Of a stretch of DNA of 64,000 nt, positions 19,749-34,350 are shown piece after piece; the first letter of the stretch is position 1, and each line of letters starts with the position of its first letter. The DNA comes from Syntrophorhabdaceae bacterium (GTDB lineage: Bacteria > Desulfobacterota > Syntrophorhabdia > Syntrophorhabdales > Syntrophorhabdaceae). Position numbers and translations under genes: made by a program. Location: contig OY762209.1 in the NCBI GenBank assembly GCA_963665295.1, positions 1,920,001-1,984,000 on the forward strand, read 5' to 3'. Under the pieces are notes generated by a model. The model worked only from the letters and a program-made list of their open reading frames with translations, made no database searches and had not been told where the DNA came from.

Positions 19749-21665
19749 GTGCAGATCTCTTACATCAATAAGTTACCCCTGTCAAAGAAGATAGTGGGGA
19801 CAATCATATTTGCCGTGTTGTTTACGAGTATTATCATCTCTCTCACAGGCTATTTCATTCTTTCCCGTCACCTCAACCAACAGGCAAAGAAAGAGGTCAT
19901 GACCGCTTCATGGGTCGTCGAATCGCACCATAACCTCCTGAAGGAGAAAGTCCTCATGACCGCCTCGCTGCTCGCGGGTAACCCGAGCGTGGCAACGGCC
20001 CTGAAGGAGGGGAAGGGTGAATTTCTCCGGGAACTGGCCGGGAACATCGTAAAGGAACAGGAGGGGATGCTCATTACCATTGCCGATAAAGACGGAGTTG
20101 TTGTGGCGCGCGGCCATTCCGACAAGAAAGGCGACAGCGTCGTCAACCAGATAAACGTGAAAAAGGCCCTCGCCGGTGAAGCTTCCACAGGCATAGAAGA
20201 GGGGACGGTGGTGAAACTCTCGCTTCGCGCGGGTTACCCTGTGAAGGTGGGGGGCGAGATCGTGGGGTCCATCACTACCGGGATCAACCTCTCCTCGGAC
20301 AATGGTTTTGTGGATGCCATGAAAAAGCAGCTCGGCACGGAATGTACCATCTTTCATAACGACACGAGGGTCTCTACCACCATAATGAAGGACGGCAAAC
20401 GGATGACGGGGACAAAGATGGACAATCCCGTGGTCATCGACACGGTATTGGCCAAAGGCAGAACCTTCCACAACATAAACACCATAATGGGGAAACCCTA
20501 CGACACGGTGTACCTGCCCCTCACGGGAGCCGGAGGGCAGATCATCGGTATGCTCTTCATAGGAAAGGACCGGGGTCACATCACCAAGGCCTATACGGGT
20601 ATCATCGTGTCTCTCCTGATCGCCATATGCGTCACCGCGGCCCTGTTGATCACTGCGGGTATCTTTGTGACCCGCTCCATTGTGCGACCCATAAACAACG
20701 TGGCCGAAGTCTTCAAGGGAGTGGCGAACGGCGATCTGACAAAGAGAACGGAAGTGGAGTCCCGCGACGAAATAGGCCGGATCGGCTCATACCTTAACCG
20801 TTCGGTGGATAACCTCCACGGGATCATCGCCAAGGTCGGGGAGAGCAGCACAAGGATTTCGTCCACGGCAAACACCCTTGACGCCGCCGCCGCGGAGATG
20901 GCAGGCGCCATCGAGCGGGCCGCGTCCCAGGCGGATTCGGTTGCCACAGCGAGCGAAGAGATGTCCACAACCTCCACGGAAATTGCGCAGAACTGCGTTA
21001 AGGCCGCAAGAAGCTCCGAGAAAGCCCATAGTTCCGCCGTTACCGGGGCAAAGATCATCGAGAGGACCATAGAGGTGATGAACCGCGTGAACGGGAGGGA
21101 GAAGGAGTCTGCGGCCATCATAATCAACCTCGGAAAACGATCGGACCAGATAGGCCAGGTCATTGAACTGATAAACGACATTGCCGAACAGACCAACCTC
21201 CTGGCCCTGAACGCCGCGATAGAGGCTGCCCGCGCCGGTGAACACGGGAGGGGGTTTGCCGTGGTTGCCGACGAAGTGCGTAAGCTCGCGGAACGGACGG
21301 CTCAGGCAACGAAGGAGATCGGGAGTACCATCGAGACCATGCAGTCCGAGACACGCAGCGCGGTGATTTCCATGGAGGAAGGGGTCGCGGAAGTGGAGCT
21401 CGGCACCAAGGAGACGTTGAAATCAGGCGACGCCCTGAAGGACATCCTCCAACAGGTGAGCACCGCGAGCGCTGAGATCAACCAGATCGCCGTCGCATCG
21501 GAACAACAGACTTCGACTGTCAACGAGATCGCGAACAACATCCAGGAGGTTTCCGGGGTAATGCAGAAAATGGCCGGGAGGATACAGGACAACACGGGGG
21601 AGTACTCGGACCTGTCAGGCCTCTCCAGGGAACTTGAAAAACTGATAAAACGCTTCACGGTCTAG
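19749..21665 (+). CDS. Methyl-accepting chemotaxis protein (Cache, HAMP)
   Basis: Two TM segments, a Cache-like periplasmic region, HAMP (RDEIG) and [34 protein letters not shown]. Confidence 0.95.
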
Positions 21666-21692
21666 CGTCGAAAAGCAAGGCGCATTCCTGAC

Positions 21693-21730
21693 AACCGCCC
21701 CGCCCGCCTTCATTGCGGACGGGGCGGTTT
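21693..21730 (+). terminator. Putative intrinsic terminator after the MCP
   Basis: aaccgccccgcccgc...gcggacggggcggttt hairpin. Confidence 0.45.
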
Positions 21731-21878
21731 CGCGACGTGGTGCGCCGCCTGCCCGCCCACTGGCGGAAGGCCCTTACCGGTGTTATATTCTATCCATGAT
21801 GACCCGGGCCGGCTCGCGTTTCGCAACGGTTGACGAGACCTCTCCTCTTCCCCGGAAATCGCAAAAAGGGGTGTGCTT

Positions 21879-22286
21879 ATGAAGAAATATATCTTGACTG
21901 TGGTGCTCACGCTCATTGCTCTTACCTCGGGCATGGCAAGGGCACAAGACCCGCACATGATGACAAAGGAGCAGCTTGTTCCCATGCTGGGGAAGGCCGG
22001 TGTAATCATCATCGACGTGCGGACGAAATATGACTGGGATAGCAGTAAGGTGAAGATCCCCGGGGCCGTGAGGGAAGAAGGCATGAGATTCGCCTCGTGG
22101 ATGAAGAAGTACCCCAAGGACAAAACAATCGTCTTCTACTGTGCCTGAGTGAACGATACGGCAAGTGTCAGTTTGACACAGGCATTTCTGAAAGCGGGAT
22201 ATGAAAAGGTTTACTATCTGAAAGGCGGCGTAAGGGGCGCATGGGAAGACTGGACAAAGGCCAGTTGCCCTACGGAGCCCAAGTAG
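21879..22286 (+). CDS. Exported rhodanese-related selenoprotein (in-frame UGA at 22146-22148)
   Basis: Signal peptide, IIDVR, IPGA, IVFYCA-TGA. The same frame then continues VNDTASVSLTQAFLKAGYEKVYYLKGG...W...PTEPK to TAG 22284-22286, completing the rhodanese fold. Confidence 0.78.
22149..22184 (+). promoter_or_regulatory. Candidate bacterial SECIS element
   Basis: Stem GTGTCA (22165-22170) / TGACAC (22174-22179) with a G-leading loop GTT, starting 16 nt after the UGA. Confidence 0.55.
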
Positions 22287-22317
22287 CCGGTTGCGGTGAA
22301 CCGTCCGGAACCCCTTC

Positions 22318-22809
22318 TCACCAGACGAGGTTGAGCGTGTCGCGCCATTTCGCGGAAAGCCTCGTGCCGAGGGACACCCAATGGCGGCTCTTAGAGGGCG
22401 AGAAAAGGACCGCCGCCGACAGCAGGGATATGGCAGGGTCCAGATAGATGCTCCACGACGCCATGGTAGAGCCGATCGCCCCGAAACAGCCGCACTCTAC
22501 GTCCATCCCCCGTGAGAGGAGGATGGCCTTGGTGATCAGGAATGAAATACCCAGCAAGCCTACGCCGAGGGCGCACAAGCGGGTGAGCACGCCCAGGAGC
22601 AAGCCGAGGCCTGTGGCCAGCTCAATGAAGGGAAGGGCCCAACCGAAGGCGATGGCGAGCGGTCCCGGCAGTATGTCCATGTTGTAGACCATGGCCACCG
22701 AGTAATGCCGGATATCGACGAACTTCCCGAATGACGAGACGAGAAAAGTGACGGCGAGAATCACACGGCAGGCAAGTATGATGTGCCGGTTTTCCAGTAT
22801 CTTGTTCAT
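22318..22809 (-). CDS. MauE/DoxX family redox-associated membrane protein
   Basis: Four TM segments, LPFIEL..GL.LLLG and RGMDVECGCFG. SD ggag precedes ATG 22809. Confidence 0.85.
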   Translation of the reverse strand: MNKILENRHIILACRVILAVTFLVSSFGKFVDIRHYSVAMVYNMDILPGPLAIAFGWALPFIELATGLGLLLGVLTRLCALGVGLLGISFLITKAILLSRGMDVECGCFGAIGSTMASWSIYLDPAISLLSAAVLFSPSKSRHWVSLGTRLSAKWRDTLNLVW

Positions 22810-23075
22810 AGTGAACACTCCAGAGGGAAATCCTTCATATTTTGCTTCTTTTCCATAACCTCACCAGGTCCTCATATACGTGTCCGGACAAGGGCATATA
22901 TTGCCCGGGGAAATTCACGAAGAATTGATTCGCAAACCTCATATATAAGGTGGGTCCCGTTCTTGCCGAATGCAAGGGTGCAACGGGGCAAGATGTGCGC
23001 GGGAGTGAAAGGGGGGAGGGACGCGGGAGTCCAGGGATATGAGACAAAGCGGAAGCGGGTTATACGTTTGGGGGA

Positions 23076-23341
23076 AGGCGGTTGGGGAGGGGGCTTCCCG
23101 GCGGACTTCGCGGCGCTCCGGTTTTACCCTTTGCGCGGTTCCGCTGCCCTCGATGCTCAGTGCGCAGGGAGTTTCAATATAAATGTCCATTGGCAGCCCG
23201 CAAAGCCTGCCGGTTATGACGAGCCTGATCCTCCTGTCCGGCGCATCGTGCCGCGAAAGGCGCGGCACCGGTCACCGGAGCCGGCAGGGTCCCAAAACCT
23301 CCACGAAGCTCGCCGCCGCGAAACCCCCTCCCCAACCGCCT
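23076..23341. repeat. 266-bp non-coding element with long terminal inverted repeats (MITE-like or structured RNA)
   Basis: aggcggttggggaggggg (23076-23093) is the perfect reverse complement of 23324-23341; the match extends to 29 bp with 2 mismatches. Internal hairpin gtgccgcg-aaagg-cgcggcac. Confidence 0.6.
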
Positions 23342-23611
23342 AGATAGAAGGGGGTAGGCGGAGGGTATTACTGATTGATATCTGTGAGTTGGAGATGACG
23401 TCTTCTGAGCAGATGTTCGCACGTTTCCGCGGTGCGCTTTGACGGTCTTATATGTTTCATAGTTCGTTTCAATAAAAAGATTACTTAGCGGTGAACGAAA
23501 TCGAGTATAATGTAGCAAGAGCGGTTGTGAAATGTCAGCGAGGTTAAGGGAGGGGAAATCAATACTAAAACACCGCAGGTAGTAGAGAATTTAGATAACC
23601 TCGATGTCACG

Positions 23612-25330
23612 GTGCACTCTAATGAAAGAGCCTTTTCGAGTCTAGGTGCTATATATACACCGGTCGAATTCGCCGGTTTTCTCGTAAAATGGGCTGTTCA
23701 AACCGCCCAGCAAAAAGTGCTGGATGTGGGCATCGGCGATGGCGTTTTTGTATTCAAGACATTCGAACGATTGATTCAACTTCGTTCTGATCACAAAACC
23801 GCACAGGAACAAATATTCGGTTCCGAAATTGACTGTACGACTTACAATCGGTTCCTGGACTTGTGTACTCGCAAGGGACTGCATTTTCCTCATTTACGTA
23901 GCGCAGATTTTTTTACTCTTGAGTTCCCTATGGTTGATGCGATCGTGGGGAATCCTCCTTACGTAAGACGAGCGGCAATCCAGGACGTAGACGACATACG
24001 TAGCTCCATCTTTGAACGGGATGGTTTGATCGGCAAGAATTTATCGAGATTAACCGATTTATGCGTCTACTTCCTGTTATACGCCTGCCAATTTCTTAAG
24101 GTAGGCGGAAGACTTGCGGTCATAACTGCTGATTCTTGGTTGGATGTGGGTTACGGAGAGGGGTTTAAAAAGTACCTACGAGACAACTTTGAAATTGAGC
24201 GACTTATTGCTGTTGACAGGCAGGTTTTTCGAAATACTGAAGTCAAGCCGGTATTAATCCTTGCAACAAAGACCGCCGCTCAGAAAGGTTTAGGTAGCAC
24301 TTACTTCGTAAGGCTAAAGAACGGTTTGTCAATTGACCATGGAATGCGCACAGAAGAGACCACCGGAGAAAATGACTTAATTTGTTCTCGAATCCAAACC
24401 TCAGAGATGGATGAGCGTAGTTCCTGGAGCTTTCACTTTAAGAAAGCCTCCGAATTCAACTTCCTCGCAAGCCATAAACTAATGGTCGCAATGGAGAGCG
24501 TTGCACAGACAAGAATTGGTGTGCAGACTCTCGCCAAACCTTTTTTTATTCTATCAACGGAACGAGCAAGAGAATTGAACCTCGAGCCACGTTTTCTCGA
24601 AACAATCGCTTTGTCTCTCAGGTATTTTGCTTCACCCGTCATAGAATCCCGGTCAGAGAGTCCCCACATGTTGTTTTATTGTTCTGATCCAAAGGAGAGT
24701 TTGAAGGGGACTAATGCTCTGGCTTACATCTTGGATGGGGAATCGGTGGAGGTACCGATAAGGGGGAAAGCCACCCGGGTCAAGGGTTACCACTCTAAAG
24801 ATCGTATCGTTCGGTCGTCTCGAAGACAATGGTATGACCTTAAGACGTCCATAGAAAGACGCGGTCGGGCAGCTATCTTAATTCCAAGACTGATCTACAA
24901 GACATATCGTGTGATATGGAACAAAGCCAGCCTGGTGCCCGGGGAGCTCTTTATTGAATTTCTACCATTTTCGGCCATTATTAGGCCGGAGGTCCACCTA
25001 GCTATTCTGTCAAGCTCTCTGACTGAAACCATGTTGCGAATACGGACCCACGTATACGGCGGCGGGACATATAACATAAACCCGGGGCAGATTGGTAAAA
25101 CTCCAGTGCTTAATGCGGAAGTCATAGATGAACAACAACGGGACGATTTGTGTCGAGCATATACGGAGTATGTCTGTGGAAAAGGCCGAGAGGCGATAGA
25201 TACAATCGTCTATCGCATATTGGGGATTGACGAACGCCAGCGAGAAAGGCTGGAGACGATGTTGAAAGATTTACTTCTGATAGCGACGTCCGCCAAGAAG
25301 CCGCATTTAGCGAATCCACATAGTGTCTAG
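23612..25330 (+). CDS. N6-adenine DNA methyltransferase (gamma class, Eco57I-like) with a C-terminal target-recognition region
   Basis: LGAIYTP, motif I VLDVGIGDGVF, motif IV VGNPPYVR, LKVGGRLAVI and SWLDVGYG. No nuclease domain seen. Confidence 0.88.
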   Translation: MHSNERAFSSLGAIYTPVEFAGFLVKWAVQTAQQKVLDVGIGDGVFVFKTFERLIQLRSDHKTAQEQIFGSEIDCTTYNRFLDLCTRKGLHFPHLRSADFFTLEFPMVDAIVGNPPYVRRAAIQDVDDIRSSIFERDGLIGKNLSRLTDLCVYFLLYACQFLKVGGRLAVITADSWLDVGYGEGFKKYLRDNFEIERLIAVDRQVFRNTEVKPVLILATKTAAQKGLGSTYFVRLKNGLSIDHGMRTEETTGENDLICSRIQTSEMDERSSWSFHFKKASEFNFLASHKLMVAMESVAQTRIGVQTLAKPFFILSTERARELNLEPRFLETIALSLRYFASPVIESRSESPHMLFYCSDPKESLKGTNALAYILDGESVEVPIRGKATRVKGYHSKDRIVRSSRRQWYDLKTSIERRGRAAILIPRLIYKTYRVIWNKASLVPGELFIEFLPFSAIIRPEVHLAILSSSLTETMLRIRTHVYGGGTYNINPGQIGKTPVLNAEVIDEQQRDDLCRAYTEYVCGKGREAIDTIVYRILGIDERQRERLETMLKDLLLIATSAKKPHLANPHSV

Positions 25331-26068
25331 CAAAGATTCCTTATTTGTTATTGCTGTCAGGCATTCCGTATAATAGTCTTTGAGCATTAAGTCTTGATAT
25401 TGGATTATTTCCATCCGCCATTCGCCTTTCTTTCTAATCTCTATGTATTTGTCCCAAAAAAAATTTGCGGCAATCAACTGGCATGTCAAGAAAAGTTCCA
25501 TAGGCCTATGCTCGAGTCTCGGGAGATTAACCTTCTTTGGATGCCAACATAGTTCATATTCTTCCGGTACTCCTCCGAATTGAAGGTGAAATTTAGGCCC
25601 GCACTTCTGCTCTGAATCTGCTCTGTCCAAATGAAATCGAGAGACCACGCGACCAGATTGATTTCTCTCCGGATCAGAGAGCCTTTCCTGCACGTGAGCT
25701 GAATCCCTATTTTGATCAAATATGGTTTCTTCATGTGTGCTCCAGATGCGCACTTTTATATCCTGCTTGACCGGGGCATTACTGTCTTCCCATCTGATAT
25801 CACAGTATACATCAACCTGAACCTTAATTCCGTTAGGAATTTGGATTGGTTTGAATTTCAGAGGTTGGGCGTGGTCTATGGTGTATCCCCAAGGTTCCGG
25901 GGTAAAGCCACGCGTGCGATTCCTTTGGGCATAGTCATACTCCTTCTTTGTTGTCTCAACTTGGGCTTGAGCCGCAGGGAGTACAATTTGATGACTACTG
26001 TCCAAAATCTCGTTATACACCTTTCCCACGTGCCTTAGTGAGGTCCCAACCCTTCTGGCATCCATCAT
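25307..26068 (-). CDS. Hypothetical protein, third gene of the kinase-receiver operon
   Basis: ATGA overlap with the receiver stop at 26065-26068. RFHLD...GPKFHLQFGG...PRLEHRPME core. Confidence 0.75.
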   Translation of the reverse strand: MMDARRVGTSLRHVGKVYNEILDSSHQIVLPAAQAQVETTKKEYDYAQRNRTRGFTPEPWGYTIDHAQPLKFKPIQIPNGIKVQVDVYCDIRWEDSNAPVKQDIKVRIWSTHEETIFDQNRDSAHVQERLSDPERNQSGRVVSRFHLDRADSEQKCGPKFHLQFGGVPEEYELCWHPKKVNLPRLEHRPMELFLTCQLIAANFFWDKYIEIRKKGEWRMEIIQYQDLMLKDYYTECLTAITNKESLLDTMWIR

Positions 26069-27135
26069 TTTTGCGACTCCCACAAGTCATTGACTATCCG
26101 GAGCCCGTCAGGGTCAACATGATCTTCATCGAAATTAGGCGATTCTTTGATCGCTTTAAAAGAAACTCGTGCCTGATCCATAATGGCTGGTCTGGCGTCT
26201 GGATAATACGGTATAGAGTTTTGTTGTTTGACGGGCATATTCAGAATATAGCAGACCCAATCCGCAATGGGGCTCCCATCAACAAGGCACATCGCGGGAT
26301 CAAGGGTGTCGGGATATTTCATGTGGTAGGCTTTTGCGAATTGCTCAGAGATACTGCCAGTCAACTTTTCACTGGAGATCAATATCTGTGCGATACTGAA
26401 AAGCCTACCACGCCACCATCGTTCACGATAATCGCCGAAAATACCCTTGTATCTTGATGCCTCCACAATCTCTTGAACTCTCTCTGAGCGAAACGATTCA
26501 AGACTGATTCCCAATCGAGTTGCTGCAGTCAAATCGTCGTAAAGTATACCTGGATATCTAAGAACCACATTGCGTAGCCAGTTAGCGGTCTGAGGAACAT
26601 TCCAGACACCCTTTACAACAGGCAATCCTGTTTCCTTCAGCAGATCTACCTCATCTTCCTCGGCCTGGATGAGTTTCAAAACGGCCTTCCAATCCTGGCC
26701 TTGTATCGCGTCAAGGCCCTTAAATCCAGTAATTAGGTCCACGATTTGATTTCTGACTTTGTCAGCGTCCTGATAAATGTCATCCTTATACACAATCAGG
26801 TCCACATCGGTGCTATTCATCAACCGCTGTACGTTCCCAGTAATAACCTCTGGCTTCGTCACCATCACTATGGGGCAGGCGGGATTTCTCATTCGGACTT
26901 CGGCGGCCAAAGTGCTGCCGAAATAGTCGATGGGCTTACCGTCTATGGATGCAGTTGACAAGTCGTGATCTATCAATAGCATATCCGCGCTGTTGGTTAG
27001 ATTCGCAAAGTTTTCTGGAGGTTCAATTAACTCGACCTCGAGGCCACCGGACTCGTTCAATAGCTCCTGCACCTTATGGGCGAAGCGACCCCGTTCAAAG
27101 ACTTCGTCGTCGATATAAATCACCTTATATGCCAT
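26065..27135 (-). CDS. Receiver-domain protein with a long uncharacterised C-terminal region
   Basis: VIYIDDE, LLIDHDL (phospho-Asp), IVMVT and VYK motifs. The start overlaps the kinase stop. Confidence 0.82.
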   Translation of the reverse strand: MAYKVIYIDDEVFERGRFAHKVQELLNESGGLEVELIEPPENFANLTNSADMLLIDHDLSTASIDGKPIDYFGSTLAAEVRMRNPACPIVMVTKPEVITGNVQRLMNSTDVDLIVYKDDIYQDADKVRNQIVDLITGFKGLDAIQGQDWKAVLKLIQAEEDEVDLLKETGLPVVKGVWNVPQTANWLRNVVLRYPGILYDDLTAATRLGISLESFRSERVQEIVEASRYKGIFGDYRERWWRGRLFSIAQILISSEKLTGSISEQFAKAYHMKYPDTLDPAMCLVDGSPIADWVCYILNMPVKQQNSIPYYPDARPAIMDQARVSFKAIKESPNFDEDHVDPDGLRIVNDLWESQK

Positions 27136-29356
27136 CAAGAGTTCTCCTTTCAGGTAAAACAATCTCTATGCATGTCTTCCACGGCAAGTCGATGTCAATG
27201 AATCTTGCCTTTCCGGCATAGAGTTCCAGTATGTCCCGCACGACAGTAAGTCCGAGGCCCGTGCCGATGCCCAGCACTGGATTCGGGAGGCTCGTGGTCA
27301 CAAATGGTTTAAATGACGATTCTCGGTGAACTGGGTCAAGACCTACCCCTGTATCCTTCATTCGTATGCTGAGAATGCCATCCTTTCTATCCGCCTCTAC
27401 TGCAATGGACCGCTCGGTCCGCCCATGAACCGCCTTGAGTGCATTCGACAGGATATTGATCAGTACTGCGTAAAGCTCTGACAAGTATATGGGAGGCGTA
27501 TGTAAGCTAGGTGGGACATTATTCTCGAAATCCACGTGGTTCTTCACCATATAGTACGACATGGCCTTCTTCACGTTTTCAACGACGGCACGCAACACCT
27601 GTCGTTTGCGGCTCTTGCGACTTTCAGGAGAAAGTAAGAATCCCAACTGTGAAACCTGCAACTTAACCATTTGATGCCAGTCTGAAACTCGTTCAATGAT
27701 GTCATCATATCTCTCGTGGACAGCCTCCGGTATTTCGGACCGCAGGTGAACTAGCTCGCCTTGCGTCTCTAAGACCGCCCCGAGCAAAGCCTGCAACTGA
27801 TGATTCATAATGATTATGGTTGTCCCAGCCGACGCGAGGATTCGCAACATGGATATCTCGCTAATATGTTCTTCCTCCTGCATGCGTGCTTGTTGAGCGG
27901 CTTTCTCCATGATTTCGATGATGGCCTTACGACTCAACTCATTGACGTTAGGCAATTCTTGAAGTGCCGCTTGCGCATATCCAATAATCTCAGCAACAGT
28001 TTGTGGTTTCCGTAGCTTGGCACTTTCCTTTTGCGAGGCCACAAACGCGGCATATTTCAGAGTCATCCAGTACATACCATTTTGAACAAAACGGCGAAGA
28101 AGAGTCACTGTGGGGGTCTCAATGAGTCGTTCTCGGCTGATGTTTGTGCCGACAGCCGTATGTTTCAACTGGGACAGTGCAACCGCCCCGAATACCTGTT
28201 GATTCTTCGGTATAAATAGAAAGGGACGACCCGATAGCCTTTTGGCGAACTCCCTTAAAGGCTTGGCCGGAGAAATATCTTTTGCGATATCAATGTTTTT
28301 TGCGGCATACCAGTCGAGTCGTAGCCAGTCGTCGCCTTCATCCCCATAAGGAAAAACTCGGAAACCGTCAAGATAGATTCTTACTCCGCCAGATGAGCGC
28401 CCTTTTCTCTGAGCTTCTCGTACTGTAAAAACGGAATCTTTAAAATAGTCTGAGGAGTAGACCATGAAGTAGACTCTAAAGCTTGCACCTTCGAGACCTT
28501 TATATCTATTTTCGTGATCTACGAAAGTCTCACTTTCATCAGTCCTCAAAAGGGTGATGTCATAGCGTGCCTCCCCAGTCGCATCAATCGTTCCATCTAG
28601 TTTAGCCCATGCTGCATTGAAAAACCTCTCTTCCAGTCCGCTCGAAAACTCATCTATCTCGTGCGAGCCCTCCACGACTAGCTTGAAAGCGAATCCTGGA
28701 TCCGCGACGGCTCCTTCATCTCCTTGACTCGTAGGCTTAGTTATTAAATCGGGAAATGGGGTCTGTAAGCCTAACAGGTCACGTTGAAGATCATTTATTT
28801 CCCCAATGGTCCAGGCGTCGCGCGCCTTTTCGATAAATAATAAAACACCTGTCTGCCTTTGCTCCGGCACATCCTGCCTGGAATAGGACACCGGCGTGTC
28901 CGACAAATCCTGACCCGGAAGAAACTGCTTCTCCCAATCAAACTCCACTGTAACCTTTTCTTTTTGGCCGTCGGCTGTCCTCGCCACCGATTCCATTGTA
29001 AGCCTACCGCCTAATCGTCTTGCGGCGAATCTCCCTATCCCCTTTGCGCCAGTTAACGATCTACGACAGTGCCTTGATACAGGATTCCTTGTCTTTGCGT
29101 CAGTAGCTATACGCATCCAATTGTCCTGTATTTCCTGAAACGTCATGCCATGGCCGTCATCTTCCACAATAATAGTCCCACCGAGTCGGCCTATATTATT
29201 AAGAGTGACGCGAACTGTTGTTGCATCTGCGTCGTATGCGTTTTTCACAAGTTCGGCCAAGGCGATAGAAGGCTTTGTGACTAACTGTTCGCCAAGTTGA
29301 AAAAGTAGACTACTATCGATTGAAAATCTGAAGCTGCCCTTACTCGCGTTTTCCAT
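27125..29356 (-). CDS. GHKL (HSP90/MORC-like) ATPase fused to a histidine kinase
   Basis: N-terminus: ELVKNAYDA, DDGHGM, GAKGIGRFA. C-terminus: H-box MNHQL, N-box NILSNA, DTGVG, FKPFVTT, GTGLGL. No TM segment. Confidence 0.9.
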   Translation of the reverse strand: MENASKGSFRFSIDSSLLFQLGEQLVTKPSIALAELVKNAYDADATTVRVTLNNIGRLGGTIIVEDDGHGMTFQEIQDNWMRIATDAKTRNPVSRHCRRSLTGAKGIGRFAARRLGGRLTMESVARTADGQKEKVTVEFDWEKQFLPGQDLSDTPVSYSRQDVPEQRQTGVLLFIEKARDAWTIGEINDLQRDLLGLQTPFPDLITKPTSQGDEGAVADPGFAFKLVVEGSHEIDEFSSGLEERFFNAAWAKLDGTIDATGEARYDITLLRTDESETFVDHENRYKGLEGASFRVYFMVYSSDYFKDSVFTVREAQRKGRSSGGVRIYLDGFRVFPYGDEGDDWLRLDWYAAKNIDIAKDISPAKPLREFAKRLSGRPFLFIPKNQQVFGAVALSQLKHTAVGTNISRERLIETPTVTLLRRFVQNGMYWMTLKYAAFVASQKESAKLRKPQTVAEIIGYAQAALQELPNVNELSRKAIIEIMEKAAQQARMQEEEHISEISMLRILASAGTTIIIMNHQLQALLGAVLETQGELVHLRSEIPEAVHERYDDIIERVSDWHQMVKLQVSQLGFLLSPESRKSRKRQVLRAVVENVKKAMSYYMVKNHVDFENNVPPSLHTPPIYLSELYAVLINILSNALKAVHGRTERSIAVEADRKDGILSIRMKDTGVGLDPVHRESSFKPFVTTSLPNPVLGIGTGLGLTVVRDILELYAGKARFIDIDLPWKTCIEIVLPERRTLDGI

Positions 29357-29432
29357 GATATATCAGCCGCCGTTCACCGTGTCTAGGCCTCCAATGAGAC
29401 GCATTTAACCAGCGTTTCGCTATCTTTGTTTG

Positions 29433-29461
29433 ATTATCGTGTAATTCAAACTGATTTGCAA
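29433..29461 (-). promoter_or_regulatory. sigma70-type promoter of the kinase operon
   Basis: Minus strand TTGCAA, 17 nt, GATAAT. Confidence 0.45.
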
Positions 29462-29616
29462 GCAGAAATCTTAATTCTCCCGGGCGAAGCCGGAGAATGA
29501 GACGTTAGTGCGCTATCTCAAAGAAGTTTTGCCATGTTGTATCCTCCATGGCTTGATCATAAAGCAAGTGTTTGCAGCCCTCAGTCCCGATTTGGCGGGA
29601 GAGGTGGCCGATAGCT

Positions 29617-29679
29617 TAATTGTAAAGCCTTTACTGAGATATCACTTTTGTGGCGCAGGCCCCTGAGGTACTACACTAG
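29617..29679. mobile_element. Degenerate IS630-like terminal remnants
   Basis: taattgtaaagc (29617-29628) is the reverse complement of 49524-49535. ctgaggtactacactag (29663-29679) is 15/17 identical to the IS630 right end at 50626-50642. Confidence 0.5.
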
Positions 29680-29905
29680 CGAGCCTCAACCACCCCTTCC
29701 ACTTTGTTTGATGCACTGCGATTTCAGTTCGTAATAATATCGGTGTGATGTCGCAAAGGGTGATAGTCATGCAGGACGGGACTGGCGTTTGTCCTCGAAT
29801 TGAGTTGTCCTGAGGAAAAAGCCACATAACGACTTCGAAAAAGTCAAACTATCCCAGCTTGTCATGAACCCATTATCTCGCAAACCCTTCGCGAATGATT
29901 ACCGC

Positions 29906-30481
29906 CTACCTTCTCCCTTCAAGCTCTTCCCAGAATTTTGATTCTGTTTCTATCAGCCTTTCTATGTAGCCGTCGTCGCGGTCTATGGGGAGGTGGATTT
30001 CGGGGCGGCCGGGGAGGTAGCACCAGAAATCTATTCGGGAGAGGCCTGTGACGGCGAGGATGTGCTGGAGTTGCCCTATGTAGTATCCGGGGGGGCGGCC
30101 CTTGTTTGTGGCGTGCTTGTACGCGCTCGTACCGCACTTTATTTCGATTACCGTGTTGCCGTCGTGGGCGAGGCCGTCGAGGCTCGCTCTCATCCAGTCA
30201 ATCTCTTTGCTTTCGAGGCATACGGGCCGGACCTTGATCCCGGTGAACCGCTCGTAACGGCTCCTTGCCTCGGGCTCCAGTTGAGTGCCGCGGCGCATGG
30301 CCTCATTCATCCTGACTTTTGACTCGTTGAGTTTCTCTTTGAGGAGCCACTCACGGCTCTTCCAGGGGTTTTCGTCCATGATGGCAGGGGCGTCCGAGGC
30401 GCCGATGCCCCGGCTTCTCCAGGCATGCCATTCCGGGCTCCCCTGGTCGAGGTCAACGATCTTATATGGGTATTCTACCAT
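29906..30481 (-). CDS. YqaJ / lambda-exonuclease family protein
   Basis: QGSPEW..WR..GIGASD, G..LEP.AR, ASLDG, EIKC and YIGQLQH motifs. Confidence 0.92.
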   Translation of the reverse strand: MVEYPYKIVDLDQGSPEWHAWRSRGIGASDAPAIMDENPWKSREWLLKEKLNESKVRMNEAMRRGTQLEPEARSRYERFTGIKVRPVCLESKEIDWMRASLDGLAHDGNTVIEIKCGTSAYKHATNKGRPPGYYIGQLQHILAVTGLSRIDFWCYLPGRPEIHLPIDRDDGYIERLIETESKFWEELEGRR

Positions 30482-30535
30482 TGCGATTTTAGTTCAGGTC
30501 TGCATCCGATAATATCAGGGACGGCATCCACCTCA

Positions 30536-30564
30536 ATACTATGCTTACCGAAGATTTTTGTCAA
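30536..30564 (-). promoter_or_regulatory. sigma70-type promoter of the YqaJ gene
   Basis: Minus strand TTGACA, 17 nt, TAGTAT. Confidence 0.5.
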
Positions 30565-30657
30565 TTAAAACATGAAGATGATAGGCCGGTGAAACCGGCG
30601 GCGCGGGATGGACGGTGAGAGCCCGGCACGGGTCGGCACGGACGGACCGGCGTGGTC

Positions 30658-30939
30658 CTATCCGAACCGGTGGCTTACCCCGTAGCCGCCGGTGGGGAAG
30701 CGCCACTCAATGTTGAGGTGGGGGCAGCCTATGCGGCAGGAGCCGCACTCCAGACAGCCTTCGTAGGCCACCACTATCCTGTCTTTTTCCAGGCGATACA
30801 CGTTGGCGGGGCAGAAGTAGAGGCAGGGCTGGTCTTCGCACCTGGTGAGACAGGTCTCACGGTCGATGATCTTTATATGGGGCGTTTCGTCTACCCGGAA
30901 ACGGTCGAGAAACAGCTTGTCTTCCACTTTTACTGTCAT
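30658..30939 (-). CDS. fixX: FixX ferredoxin-like protein
   Basis: CPANVY, CLECGSCRIGC and WRFPTGGYGV..RFG. ATGA overlap with fixC. Confidence 0.9.
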   Translation of the reverse strand: MTVKVEDKLFLDRFRVDETPHIKIIDRETCLTRCEDQPCLYFCPANVYRLEKDRIVVAYEGCLECGSCRIGCPHLNIEWRFPTGGYGVSHRFG

Positions 30940-32243
30940 TTCACGCTCCTTAGTCCGTCCCACAGCAGTTTCAGTATCTTCAAAGGGGAGATTTGCTTCC
31001 GTATTTTCAGCCATATGGCGTGTTGCTTCTCCTTCTTGGCTACGCCGTCCACAGTGAGCATCTCCCTTGCGGCAAAGGCCCCCAGTTCGGGGAGAGTGGT
31101 GAATATCTCGTGATGGTGAAAACGAAACCCGTTGAACCGTCTATACTTTTTGAGGTCCTTTGTGATATAGGACTCCTGAAGCCTCAACCCGTAACCCTCG
31201 AGGCCCCGGGCACTCAAATCGCCCTTTGCGAAGGCTTCCATAACGGCTTCCGCGGCAAACCGGCCCGAGGTCATGGCCATGTTCGAGCCTTCCCGATGGA
31301 GGGCGTTGAAGAGCATGCCCGAATCACCGGTGATAAGGTATCCGTCTCCCGAAAGCCGGGGGATGGCGTCGTAGCCGCCCTCGGCGATCCAGTGGGCCAT
31401 GTACTCCTTCGGCTTACCTCCCCGGATCAGGGGGGCGACCATGGGATGGTTCTTGAAGGCTTCCACCATTTCGTAAGGTTTTACCTTTCTTTCCGCGAAG
31501 TCGGAGAGGTTCGCCCCGATGCAGAGGGAGAGGGAGTTCTTGTTGGTGTAAATGACCGCGATGCCGTCCATGCCCTCGGTGACGGACCCGATGATCTCGG
31601 TGGTCACGCCCTGGGATGTGTCCACGTTGAACCTCTCATTGATGGTCTCCTCGGAGAGTTCGATCACCTCTTTCACCGCGAGGGCCACGTCCCGGGATTT
31701 CGGCTCGGGCCGGAAGCCCGTCCTGGCGGCGAGGGCGGAGTTGATGCCGTCGGCGAGGATCACGACCTTGGCCTGCACGTCCCCGTCGGGCCTGTCGGTC
31801 CTGACCCCTGTGACGGCGCCGCCCGCCCCATGGCGGAGCAAGTCCGTGACCACTGTGCCGGTGACTACGAGGGCGCCTTTTTCCCTGGCCCTTGCGGCAA
31901 ACCATCGGTCGAATTTTGCCCGTCCCACGGTAAATGCGTTGAGGGAGAGGGCGTCGTAGAAGGCCTTGTCCCTGAAGGCGACGCTGAAACCTCCGCCTTC
32001 CGAGAGCCACCAGAGTCTGGTCTCCACGATATTACGCTCGATGGGGCAATCCCGCTTCGCGAAATCGGGGATGATCTTTGCGAGGTCATGTCCGTAGAGG
32101 ACGCCACCGGAAATATTCTTTGCCCCCGCATATTCCCCCCGCTCAAAGACGATGGTCTTTATGCCCCTTTCCGCGAGAATATACGCTGCGGAGATACCCG
32201 CGGGACCGGCGCCGACGATTGCCACATCGAATACTTCATCCAT
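30936..32243 (-). CDS. fixC: FixC ETF:quinone oxidoreductase flavoprotein
   Basis: VGAGPAG, ERGEYAGAKNISGG, RAKFDRWF, ADGINS and EGSNMAMTSG motifs. Confidence 0.92.
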   Translation of the reverse strand: MDEVFDVAIVGAGPAGISAAYILAERGIKTIVFERGEYAGAKNISGGVLYGHDLAKIIPDFAKRDCPIERNIVETRLWWLSEGGGFSVAFRDKAFYDALSLNAFTVGRAKFDRWFAARAREKGALVVTGTVVTDLLRHGAGGAVTGVRTDRPDGDVQAKVVILADGINSALAARTGFRPEPKSRDVALAVKEVIELSEETINERFNVDTSQGVTTEIIGSVTEGMDGIAVIYTNKNSLSLCIGANLSDFAERKVKPYEMVEAFKNHPMVAPLIRGGKPKEYMAHWIAEGGYDAIPRLSGDGYLITGDSGMLFNALHREGSNMAMTSGRFAAEAVMEAFAKGDLSARGLEGYGLRLQESYITKDLKKYRRFNGFRFHHHEIFTTLPELGAFAAREMLTVDGVAKKEKQHAIWLKIRKQISPLKILKLLWDGLRSVK

Positions 32244-32254
32244 AAGTAACCCTT

Positions 32255-33511
32255 TCAGTCCCTTTTTGCCCTTTTTTTAAGCTCCTCTATAAGGAGGGGC
32301 GTCACCACCTTGTAATCCCCCACTATGCCTGCCGTGGCCACATTGAAGATGGGGGCGTGGGGATCGGAGTTGATGGCGATGATCTTCTCAGAGCCTTGCA
32401 TCCCCACGAGATGCTGGACCGCCCCGGACACCCCTATGGCGAAATAGAGCTTGGGCGCCACAGTCTTCCCTGTCTGGCCCACCTGCCGCTCATAGGGCAT
32501 GAGACCCGCTTCCACCACGGGCCTGGAGCAGGCGACCACGCCGCCCACGAGATCCGCGAGGCTCTGGAGCATGGCCATCGATTCCGGGTCGCACGCCCCT
32601 TTCCCTGCAACCACTAATGCGGGGTAGCGCGTAATGTCGAGGGCCCCTTTGGCCGCCTCATCCCTTATAAACTCTATGATTTCCGGCAACCCGCCTTCGG
32701 GCGGTTCGAAGGGGCAGGAATAGGTTTCCCCTTTTTTCGTATCATCCTTCGGAGGGAGTTTGAAGACCTTGGGCCTTACCGTGCTCATCTGGGGCCTGTG
32801 CCTCTCGCAGAAGATGGTGGCCATGATGTTGCCCCCGAAGGTGGGCCTTGTCATGAGGAGGAGCCTCTTTTCTTCGTCGATATCGAGGCCCGTGCAATCG
32901 GCGGTGAGACCCGTTTCGATCTCCGTGGCCACGATGCCCGCGAGGTCCCGGCCCTGGGGGGTTGCGCCTATGAGGAATATCTCGGGTTTTACCCGACGGC
33001 AAAGGTCGGAAAGTGCCTTGCCATAGGTCTTCGAAAGGTAGACCCCGAGCCCGGGGTCGTCGATCACATGGACCTCGTCACACCCATAGGCAATCGCCTC
33101 CGTAGCCACGCCGCCCACATGGTGGCCCGGAAGAAGGCCCGTTACCTTCGTATGGAGTTTTTCGGCCAGTTCCCGGGCTTTGCCCGCAAGCTCCCAGGAT
33201 ACGGTTGCGCCTTTGCCGTCCGCTACCTCGATATAGATGGCAACGCCTTGGTAGTCGGCATAAACGCCCTCCGGCGCAGCAGGTTTCGGGACCTTTTTCC
33301 CCTTCCCCCGCTTCCTTTCGAACTTTACCGACTCGACAGGACAGACATCGAAACACTTTCCGCACCCGACGCAGGCCTCGGGATCGATGAGGGCCGCCGA
33401 TCCCGACATGACGATTGCCCCTACGGGACATTCCGCCACGCAGATCTGGCACCCGATGCACTTGTCCGTGATGATCTCGGCGACTTCTATTCCCTTAAGG
33501 TTCTTGGCCAT
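32255..33511 (-). CDS. fixB: ETF alpha subunit (FixB) with an N-terminal 2x[4Fe-4S] domain
   Basis: Two CxxCxxCxxxCP motifs, then TGLTADC, TRPTFGG, QVGQTG and GVSGAVQH. Confidence 0.9.
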   Translation of the reverse strand: MAKNLKGIEVAEIITDKCIGCQICVAECPVGAIVMSGSAALIDPEACVGCGKCFDVCPVESVKFERKRGKGKKVPKPAAPEGVYADYQGVAIYIEVADGKGATVSWELAGKARELAEKLHTKVTGLLPGHHVGGVATEAIAYGCDEVHVIDDPGLGVYLSKTYGKALSDLCRRVKPEIFLIGATPQGRDLAGIVATEIETGLTADCTGLDIDEEKRLLLMTRPTFGGNIMATIFCERHRPQMSTVRPKVFKLPPKDDTKKGETYSCPFEPPEGGLPEIIEFIRDEAAKGALDITRYPALVVAGKGACDPESMAMLQSLADLVGGVVACSRPVVEAGLMPYERQVGQTGKTVAPKLYFAIGVSGAVQHLVGMQGSEKIIAINSDPHAPIFNVATAGIVGDYKVVTPLLIEELKKRAKRD

Positions 33512-33516
33512 AGGGC

Positions 33517-34350
33517 TCAACCCCCGTGTATGACAAGGTTGGAGGCAAAAGTTTCGTCGGCGAAAAGGGCGTCCACGCATCTGGAAACCGCCTCCGCGGC
33601 CCCTGTCGCCGCATCGAATACCGGACCTCCTTCCTTTACGGGGGGAGAAAATATCTTCCTTACCCAGGTGGGCGAACCCTTGAGGCCGAGCAATTGAATC
33701 TCGCCGTGAATCGAATCCGCCCCCCAGAGGGTGATCCCGGTCCGTTGGGAATGGATAAGCTGGGGCAAAGCCGCCCGCCTTGGCTTCGCGAGTTCCAGTT
33801 CCACGGTAAGGACTGCGGGGAGCGGACCGCGGATGATCTCGAAACCGCCCTCCACTCTCCGTTTCACCGTGATCCGGCGGTGTTCCTCATCGACTTCCCT
33901 GATCTCCGTGACATAGGTAAACTGGGTATATCCGAGGCGCGTGGCAATGCCCGGACCGACCTGGGCCGTGTCCCCGTCAATTGCCTGTTTTCCGCAGAAT
34001 ACCATATCCACCGGTGTTGCCGATGCCGCCTGGCGGATGGCCTGAGCGAGGGTATAGCTGGTGGCGAGGGTATCCGCCCCTGCAAAAGCCCGGTCGGTAA
34101 GGAGGATGCCCTCATCGGCCCCGAGGCCTATGGCCTCCCTCAAAGCATCCTCAGCCTGGGGAGGTCCCATGCTTATGACGGTGACTTTGCCGCCGTAGCG
34201 GTCCTTGAGGGCAAGGGCCGCCTCCAGGGCCACCATGTCGTAGGGGTTGGCGATGGACTCTACCCCTGAACGGATGAGGGTGTTCGTCTCCGGATCGATC
34301 TTGACTTCAGCCGTGTTGGGTACCTGCTTTATGCAGCAAATGAGGTTCAT
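33517..34350 (-). CDS. fixA: ETF beta subunit (FixA)
   Basis: CIKQVP, NPYD, AGADTLAT, GKQAIDGDTAQVGP and GLKGSPT motifs. Confidence 0.92.
   Translation of the reverse strand: MNLICCIKQVPNTAEVKIDPETNTLIRSGVESIANPYDMVALEAALALKDRYGGKVTVISMGPPQAEDALREAIGLGADEGILLTDRAFAGADTLATSYTLAQAIRQAASATPVDMVFCGKQAIDGDTAQVGPGIATRLGYTQFTYVTEIREVDEEHRRITVKRRVEGGFEIIRGPLPAVLTVELELAKPRRAALPQLIHSQRTGITLWGADSIHGEIQLLGLKGSPTWVRKIFSPPVKEGGPVFDAATGAAEAVSRCVDALFADETFASNLVIHGG

Follow-up and report, generated by a model that had tools for sequence, protein, structure and literature searches.

A putative phosphorelay-gated, restriction-modification-like defence cassette with a DUF2290-like protein in a Syntrophorhabdaceae bacterium

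What do a DNA methylase, a histidine kinase, a receiver protein and a small protein of no recognised family accomplish when their genes overlap one another and recur together? Such a four-gene cassette occupies positions 23612–29356 of a 64,000-nucleotide stretch of the genome of a Syntrophorhabdaceae bacterium (assembly GCA_963665295.1, contig OY762209.1, positions 1,920,001–1,984,000), which is referred to as the window. Comparisons of sequences indicate, with a probability of about 70%, that the genes form a restriction-modification (R-M)-like defence cassette that is gated by a phosphorelay and uses a DUF2290-like protein, the product of the fourth gene, as its effector. The class to which the cassette belongs combines a methylase, a histidine kinase fused to a paraMORC-type GHKL ATPase, a receiver, and an effector. 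It includes the Ambrosia system and the HEF_HK/Response_reg_2 cassettes; in the window, the slot of the nuclease is taken by the DUF2290-like protein.

The methylase gene (23612–25330, plus strand) encodes a 572-residue gamma-class N6-adenine DNA methyltransferase with an NPPY motif and converges on the other three genes, which are located on the minus strand. The kinase gene (27125–29356) encodes a 743-residue soluble protein in which a paraMORC-type GHKL ATPase is fused to a complete histidine kinase. The open reading frame (ORF) of the receiver gene spans 26065–27162; its start has been refined to the ATG at 27135, which has the motif AAGGAG eight nucleotides upstream, and the 356-residue product of the refined gene (26065–27135) equals the database copy P0111 in length. 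The ORF of the fourth gene spans 25307–26083, and refinement of its start to the ATG at 26068 gives a 253-residue product (25307–26068; database copy P0005). The kinase gene extends 11 nucleotides into the receiver gene, the stop codon of the receiver gene and the start codon of the fourth gene share four nucleotides as ATGA, and 24 nucleotides (25307–25330) are common to the 3′ ends of the fourth and methylase genes. The GC content of the cassette is 0.470, compared with 0.568 in the remainder of the window, where the lowest value among 104 segments of the same length is 0.536. The ORF coordinates and composition agree with a preliminary description of this DNA, which had recorded an AT-richer four-gene cassette with three overlapping minus-strand genes converging on an NPPY methylase.

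The recurrence of the cassette has been determined with hidden Markov models (HMMs) built for its four proteins. The models were used to scan 22 loci anchored on the receiver, with one genome per species, and 20 loci from metagenome contigs anchored on the fourth protein. Among the receiver-anchored loci with room for the respective neighbour, the kinase gene is located upstream in 19 of 20, the fourth gene downstream in 20 of 21, and a methylase gene of the same family is adjacent in 16 of 19. Locus L015 contains a MerR-N6_N4 methylase in place of the family methylase, and loci L006 and L022 lack a methylase. The loci anchored on the fourth protein, counted in the same manner, have the receiver upstream (17/17), the kinase upstream (12/12), and the methylase adjacent (17/18). 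Because the gene order recurs in the 42 fetched loci, the four genes adjoin each other by more than chance. The receiver and the fourth gene co-occur strictly one to one. In 28 cassettes, which represent eight or more bacterial phyla and several lineages of archaea, all four genes are found; these cassettes include that of the window, which is full length against all four models (its methylase matches positions 9–564 of 565), and a divergent full copy in a genome of the same family (L060). The four proteins co-diverge: over 19 cassettes, their pairwise identities correlate with r of 0.76–0.93, and the observed value was reached in none of 999 permutations. The conservation of the four-gene architecture, which the preliminary description had named as a check, is therefore borne out.

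The methylases of the family fall into two classes that are tied to the orientation of the gene. Identity to the methylase of the window is 46–48% in relatives with a convergent gene, as opposed to 16–22% in the others. Therefore, the other three genes form a stable core, and it is the methylase module that has undergone exchange. Overlaps of 3′ ends, measured between stop-to-stop frames, recur in the convergent relatives L004 (15 nucleotides), L005 (12), L040 (37), and L041 (30). Some copies have decayed: the kinase gene is split in L007 and the fourth gene in L057, and only the receiver is left in L006. In a metagenome-assembled genome (MAG) of Methanomicrobiaceae (L023:5186–11177), the kinase gene is broken into seven frame fragments and the receiver gene into three, and the convergent methylase gene is intact. 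This decay follows the pattern of a lost restriction part and a retained orphan methylase. The orphan receiver gene of L006 (L006:2016–12772, from a Desulfobacterales MAG), which has neither kinase nor methylase, lies in an unusual chaperone-like neighbourhood, between a gene for a 946-residue protein with an HSP70 domain and one for an 883-residue protein with a C-terminal GrpE domain.

The methylase matches the Pfam families N6_Mtase (E = 1.4e-17) and Eco57I (5.3e-15), and its residues 12–554 match the PADLOC model MTase_II (2.6e-43); the NPPY motif is present in its translation. The kinase contains two ATPase domains, HATPase_c_3 (residues 30–135, 1.4e-22) and HATPase_c (627–737, 5e-24). 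The N-terminal GHKL head extends from residue 1 to approximately 180 (28817–29356, minus strand). Its first 125 positions resemble the head of BbrUII/HgiDII restriction enzymes (NCBIfam NF050001, 9.2e-19) with a score of 67 bits, far under the 550-bit cut-off of that family. Residues E35, N39, D42, D66, G68, G70, G103, K105, G106, G108, R109, T169, and G170 of the head are invariant in 16 of 16 sequences, and so is the block GGxRxYxDxFRVxPYG..DDWL of the middle domain. The DHp helix with H519 and the catalytic ATP-binding domain comprise residues ~470–743 (27128–27949, minus strand), in agreement with NCBIfam kinase matches. The core is invariant at H519, N638, K641, D668, G670, G672, F682, P684, F685, G696, G698, T699, G700, and G702, and contains the histidine of the H-box together with the N, G1, F, and G2 boxes. 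The fusion of a GHKL ATPase with a complete histidine kinase that the preliminary description had proposed is thus confirmed by the two domains, their intact motifs, and the invariant H-box histidine. In three archaeal copies and one from Dehalococcoidia (L013, L018, L019, and L020), a charged, coiled-coil-like insert of approximately 100–130 residues, absent from the other copies, separates the middle domain from the DHp helix.

The receiver protein consists of a phospho-acceptor (REC) domain (26713–27135, minus strand) and an output domain of approximately 210 residues that is specific to the family (26068–26700, minus strand). The REC domain has been assigned from structure matches and weak matches at the family level: nine of 69 family members match Pfam Response_reg, the best with 9.4e-5, and none matches Response_reg_2. 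The receiver carries the DD, D, T, and K residues of classical two-component systems, and its acceptor aspartate, D65, is invariant across the family alignment; these residues, together with the histidine and ATP-binding boxes of the kinase, identify the two proteins as a two-component pair. The output domain has been delimited from alignments and secondary structure predicted by AlphaFold2. Its length is somewhat less than the ~230 residues that had been reported for the tail of the receiver; the tail itself, and its lack of resemblance to known families, stand. The domain has a helical region with the segment PGILYD..AATRLGIS, which by eye only resembles a helix-turn-helix (HTH), and a small beta unit in which C292, C304, YYPDxRP, and MDxARVSF are conserved. 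It is conserved as strongly as REC, with 12 invariant positions that include W249, W250, C304, R324, and R332, and with nearly invariant D322 and D329. No DNA-binding Pfam family matches the output domain in the 69 members. Matches of the receiver to structures in the PDB and BFVD are confined to the REC part; for the C-terminal domain (residues 155–365), a PDB profile search returned noise, and the ESM Atlas provided no usable match.

The fourth protein has no match in Pfam, NCBIfam, or PADLOC, as expected from the preliminary description, which had listed it as unknown, and its predicted structure (mean predicted local distance difference test score of 86.2) matches no solved fold. It belongs to a large family: a profile search of 1.84 billion representatives detected 909 relatives at E ≤ 1e-3, of which 121 reach E ≤ 1e-30. 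H166 is invariant in the family, and D127, R145, R149, D153, and R189 are nearly so. A search with a protein language model provided DUF2290 as a lead. Pfam DUF2290 (PF10053) is the sole family that matches more than one of 130 members, although weakly and in three members only (best 2.2e-4). For comparison, a true DUF2290 gene located beside a UvrD-like helicase gene (UvrD_C_2, genome G110) was expanded to an alignment. Alignment of the two families by hhalign gives a probability of 86.7% and E = 4.3e-6 over 57 columns, and the aligned columns contain the most conserved residues of both: R149/R136, D153/D140, P163/P152, H166/H155, G170/G159, C179/C164, P194/P171, and N207-F208/N184-F185. Reciprocal HMM matches between the fourth protein and DUF2290 cover the same region. 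Furthermore, the DUF2290 models of PADLOC (PDLC02998/PDLC02999) match two of six tested members, P0358 (2.5e-6) and P0366 (1e-4), both of which clearly belong to the family of the fourth protein (2.6e-28 and 5.5e-24, respectively); the fourth protein of the window itself has no direct match to the DUF2290 models. These comparisons make it likely, though not proven, that the two families share a homologous core.

DUF2290 is part of Helicase+DUF2290 (Rst_HelicaseDUF2290), a validated system against phage T7 (Rousset et al. 2022, PMC9122126). The core that it shares with the fourth protein is RFxxD...PxxHLxxG...C..P...P...NF[FY], and both are small partners without known activity in mobile defence cassettes. 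They differ in their company, because DUF2290 is paired with a UvrD-like helicase, whereas neither the cassette of the window nor its neighbourhood contains a helicase gene.

The closest validated system is Ambrosia of Pseudomonas aeruginosa, which protects against phages and consists of a HipB-like XRE regulator, an N6-adenine methylase, a HATPase kinase, a receiver with REC and winged HTH (wHTH) domains, and a type IV HNH nuclease, named AbrR, AbrA, AbrB, AbrC, and AbrD (van den Berg et al. 2025, bioRxiv 10.1101/2025.09.30.679545). According to the accessible text of the preprint, defence is lost in every domain mutant, including the D60A mutant of the receiver, and reporters at the methylase and nuclease positions show hardly any expression at rest and strong expression once infection occurs. 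Like Ambrosia, the cassette of the window contains an N6-adenine methylase, a histidine kinase with an HSP90-like HATPase, a receiver, and a fourth gene for a putative effector, a likeness at the level of domains only. The receiver aspartate that is required in Ambrosia is invariant in the family of the window. By contrast, the window cassette has no counterpart of the XRE regulator gene in its gaps, as read by eye, its putative effector is the DUF2290-like protein without a known fold rather than an HNH nuclease, and its receiver ends in the 210-residue domain, with an HTH-like segment by eye and no Pfam match, instead of an annotated wHTH. The methylase gene comes first in Ambrosia, whereas it is downstream, either convergent or co-directional, in the family of the window. 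Moreover, Ambrosia is reported in the accessible text only from Gammaproteobacteria, whereas the cassette type of the window spans at least eight bacterial phyla and archaea.

Kinases with the domains HATPase_c_3, HEF_HK, and HATPase_c, paired with Response_reg_2 proteins beside R-M genes, have been described from sequence analysis alone (Bellieny-Rabelo et al. 2021, PMC8011034). Four such cassettes (L036, L037, L038, and L039) were fetched from the phylum of the window. Their genes encode, in this order, a C5 methylase, a kinase of ~985 residues, a Response_reg_2 protein of 530–565 residues, an HNH_2 nuclease of 252–254 residues (in two of the four), and Vsr (in three of the four). The kinase HMM of the window family matches all four HEF_HK kinases with E of 1e-32 to 1e-46 at positions 17–167 and 318–712. 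Because the matches include the GHKL head, middle domain, and kinase core, the kinases of the two groups form one superfamily. The groups also share the soluble HATPase_c_3, DHp, and HATPase_c architecture, the fixed adjacency of kinase and receiver, and a methylase in the cluster. However, HMMs of the receiver and fourth protein have no match in the four HEF_HK cassettes. Pfam HEF_HK (PF19191), which matches the kinases of L036–L039, has no match in the kinase of the window at E ≤ 10, and neither has Response_reg_2 (PF19192) in its receiver; alignment of the receiver family with three Response_reg_2 proteins by hhalign gives only an insignificant stretch in REC with a probability of 0.9%. The kinase of the window is shorter (~740 versus ~985 residues), as is its receiver (356 versus 530–565), and the output domains are unrelated. 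The HEF_HK cassettes have a C5-cytosine methylase upstream and Vsr downstream, whereas that of the window has an N6-adenine methylase downstream and no Vsr. The fourth position is taken by the DUF2290-like gene in the window and by HNH_2 in the HEF_HK cassettes, with products of ~250 residues each. Since the scaffold is common and the receiver output, methylase class, and fourth gene differ, the cassette of the window is a sister and not a member of the HEF_HK class. One of the HEF_HK cassettes (L037:3219–9633) comes from a genome of the same genus as the window (G396); it has a C5 methylase, a 990-residue HEF_HK kinase, and Vsr, and its Response_reg_2 gene was not picked as one clean ORF.

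Enzymatic outputs are common among response regulators, and the cutting or killing activity might reside in the strongly conserved C-terminal domain of the receiver, with the DUF2290-like protein acting as an adaptor, inhibitor, or sensor. However, the conserved positions of that domain are mainly aromatic residues, arginines, and cysteines, with few acidic residues or histidines, whereas the fourth protein has the invariant H166 and nearly invariant aspartates and arginines, and occupies the exact position of HNH_2 in the sister cassettes. Placing the activity in the receiver is therefore improbable.

The head of the kinase is related to paraMORC proteins, GHKL ATPases that have been placed in R-M operons and for which DNA looping has been proposed (Iyer, Abhiman, Aravind 2008, PMC2292703); the terms “receiver” and “two-component” are absent from the accessible text of that paper. 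Like proteins of the paraMORC/BbrUII/HgiDII type, the kinase begins with a GHKL head whose ATP motifs are intact, and it is encoded in an operon linked to a methylase. By contrast, its head is fused to a histidine-kinase transmitter, whereas that type has a nuclease fusion and a helicase partner. The eight-gene system MADS (mad1–8) was considered as a relative and rejected, because only a part of the methylase domain matches mad2 (1e-19; NCBIfam MAD2, 0.058); no kinase component is shown in the accessible part of the MADS preprint. DefensePredictor includes a predicted, unvalidated system whose HATPase and REC domains are named in a figure legend (PMC13092281). A search of the literature found no published kinase-receiver cassette with a DUF2290-like gene, and “DUF2290” is absent from the main text on Ambrosia and from PMC8011034; supplements that list instances might hold such variants. 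The preliminary description had ranked the locus as a candidate for an undescribed system. This does not hold for the kind of system, which was described computationally in 2021 (PMC8011034), and of which one member, Ambrosia, was validated in 2025.

The distribution of the cassette suggests that it is mobile. Among 60 further genomes of the order, one contains the receiver, as a divergent copy, and it was found in none of the three of the same genus. In a tree of 22 receivers, from which the partial sequences of L015 and L023 were left out, the window copy belongs to a clade with copies from Acidobacteriota, Chloroflexota, and Thermodesulfobacteriota (support 100/100), a copy from Dehalococcoidia lies inside a clade with five archaeal copies (98/99), and the phyla are interleaved. 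Outside the four genes, related cassettes have nothing in common in their surroundings; some relatives adjoin type III or type I R-M genes, transposases, an integrase fragment, or HicB. The GC content, sporadic spread, and tree together indicate that the cassette of the window is an intact unit that was probably acquired horizontally. An empty site or insertion boundaries were not found, as the three genomes of the same genus are only ~70% identical and not syntenic at the locus. In the closest bacterial relative (L005:688–5661), the cassette directly follows a DUF4160 gene and a type III-like R-M pair, composed of an N6_N4 methylase and a ResIII helicase with an RE_endonuc domain, in a small defence island.

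The same observations bear on whether the cassette acts against phages at all. It might work as a selfish element that causes addiction or as a means of epigenetic regulation, and its two-component pair would then govern an orphan adenine methylase that serves to regulate genes or to effect post-segregational killing. Among the components, only the methylase has a biochemical activity that is known; it is retained by decayed copies such as L023, as orphan methylases are, and the cassette is flanked in the window by housekeeping genes, including those for a methyl-accepting chemotaxis protein, MauE/DoxX, and electron transfer flavoprotein (ETF). However, a regulator of host genes is not expected to take along a methylase of its own when it crosses between archaea and bacteria, and the cassette has a sporadic distribution across domains and a foreign GC content. 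In addition, the head of its kinase is of the R-M-associated paraMORC type, its fourth protein has the link to DUF2290, and its sister system Ambrosia has been validated as defence. A role in addiction or regulation is thus very improbable.

If the cassette provides R-M-like defence, its components may work as follows. The adenine methylase would mark a sequence motif in the resident DNA, as its family suggests. The GHKL head and middle domain of the kinase could conceivably use ATP to sense DNA that is invading or unmarked, or to sense infection. The kinase core would autophosphorylate on H519 and pass the phosphate to D65 of the receiver, a step to which the two invariant residues and the consistent adjacency of the genes point, and that has a parallel in the requirement for the equivalent aspartate in Ambrosia. 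The phosphorylated receiver would then switch on the DUF2290-like protein through the family-specific output domain, for which we favour direct contact over transcriptional control. The DUF2290-like protein, in which no catalytic motif has been recognised, would damage the nucleic acid of the invader or of the cell, as the position of its gene suggests. The general idea of a His-Asp transfer that switches on an effector, put forward in the preliminary description, finds support in the conservation of the residues and in the analogy with D60A of Ambrosia.

Direct activation is favoured because the receiver and fourth gene always co-occur and are translationally coupled, because the output domain changes together with the type of effector, because it matches no DNA-binding family, and because one full fusion of a receiver with an effector exists. 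The fusion protein, P0323, has 608 residues and matches the receiver profile (positions 1–359, E = 1e-112) and the fourth-protein profile (positions 13–239, 4e-76); it is one of the 150 representatives listed, and it may be an artefact of sequencing or gene calling, given the four-nucleotide overlap of the two genes. The reporter data from Ambrosia and the HTH-like stretch in the receiver speak against direct activation. They agree with a transcriptional switch as proposed for Ambrosia, in which the phosphorylated receiver would bind DNA through its HTH and induce the methylase and fourth gene on infection. This possibility draws on the infection-induced reporters and the wHTH of AbrC, on the segment AATRLGIS in the helical part of the receiver, and on the convergent methylase gene, whose overlapping 3′ end could permit transcriptional interference. 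However, the output domain, besides lacking DNA-binding Pfam matches, is unrelated to that of Response_reg_2, and its co-variation with the type of effector would be needless for a generic DNA-binding output; the fusion of receiver and effector also speaks against such a switch. No ORF for an XRE co-regulator adjoins the cassette, and no repeated operator-like motif was seen upstream. The 550-nucleotide gap upstream of the kinase gene contains no ORF longer than 61 residues, and the gap before the methylase gene contains mutually overlapping ORFs of at most 114 residues without an evident small regulator gene, both read by eye; among flanking ORFs of at least 90 residues in related loci, none belongs to the XRE family. 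A transcriptional switch is consequently rather unlikely. The full post-translational model is put forward tentatively. According to this model, the phosphorylated receiver binds and activates the DUF2290-like effector, which would have a new fold, without a transcriptional step, and DUF2290-like proteins may represent a widespread, hitherto unrecognised class of immune effectors that either a helicase or a kinase-receiver pair can drive.

Several points weigh against a phosphorelay-gated defence cassette with a DUF2290-like effector. The three minus-strand proteins match no recognised nuclease family or other catalytic family. The lack of a recognisable restriction endonuclease had been pointed out in the preliminary description, and searches of the four proteins in Pfam, NCBIfam, and PADLOC agree with it: the only resemblance is that of the GHKL head to the non-catalytic N-terminus of BbrUII/HgiDII, and an HNH match is absent at E ≤ 10 for three of the proteins and E ≤ 0.1 for the methylase. 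The similarity to DUF2290 is limited to ~57 columns and amounts to 11–25 bits by single-sequence measures, and neither the activity of DUF2290 itself nor the mechanism of Helicase+DUF2290 is known, according to the accessible text of PMC9122126. The kinship to Ambrosia has been judged from published descriptions of domains. The authors of the Ambrosia preprint favour transcriptional control, and phage grown on a host with the methylase alone stayed sensitive in their experiments (bioRxiv 10.1101/2025.09.30.679545), which makes the earlier suggestion that methylation marks self uncertain. No other defence genes were found in the flanks of the cassette within the window.

Ambrosia, which has an HNH nuclease of a familiar type and is reported only from Gammaproteobacteria, is so far the one validated example of two-component phosphotransfer triggering R-M-like immunity. 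In the family of the window, this kinase scaffold is combined with another receiver output and another putative effector, without a known fold, and has spread over eight or more phyla of bacteria and several lineages of archaea. If the weak but consistent link to DUF2290 is true, two defence systems share an effector module, and each may help to explain the other. The strict pairing of the output domain with the type of effector suggests activation at the level of proteins. If the post-translational reading is correct, it would provide the first mechanistic handle on DUF2290 and an instance of two-component signalling as a direct trigger of immunity in bacteria and archaea.

A sigma-70-like promoter match (TTGCAA-17-GATAAT, 9/12) is located upstream of the kinase gene at 29433–29461 on the minus strand. 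It is a match to the consensus only and weak evidence, because 12 such matches were observed in the region and 8.1 are expected. A scan of positions 21000–32000 with Rfam gave no match, the 64-kb window contains no tRNA, and no flanking direct repeats were found around the cassette. Upstream of the kinase gene by 550 nucleotides and on the same strand is a gene for a YqaJ-like exonuclease (29906–30481; Pfam, 4.3e-27). It was considered as the missing nuclease of the cassette and rejected, because its GC content of 0.58 is host-like, a homologue with 71% identity is encoded on a different contig of a genome of the same genus, and the gene is not among the flanks of related cassettes. Further to the right, positions 30658–34350 of the minus strand contain a FixABCX-like set that comprises a small ferredoxin-like ORF, a flavin adenine dinucleotide protein resembling ETF-quinone oxidoreductase, ETF alpha with an N-terminal 2x[4Fe-4S] domain, and ETF beta. 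The gene-poor stretch to the left of the cassette contains a 29-nucleotide inverted repeat (23076–23104 and 23313–23341), the arms of which are 93% complementary and 208 nucleotides apart.

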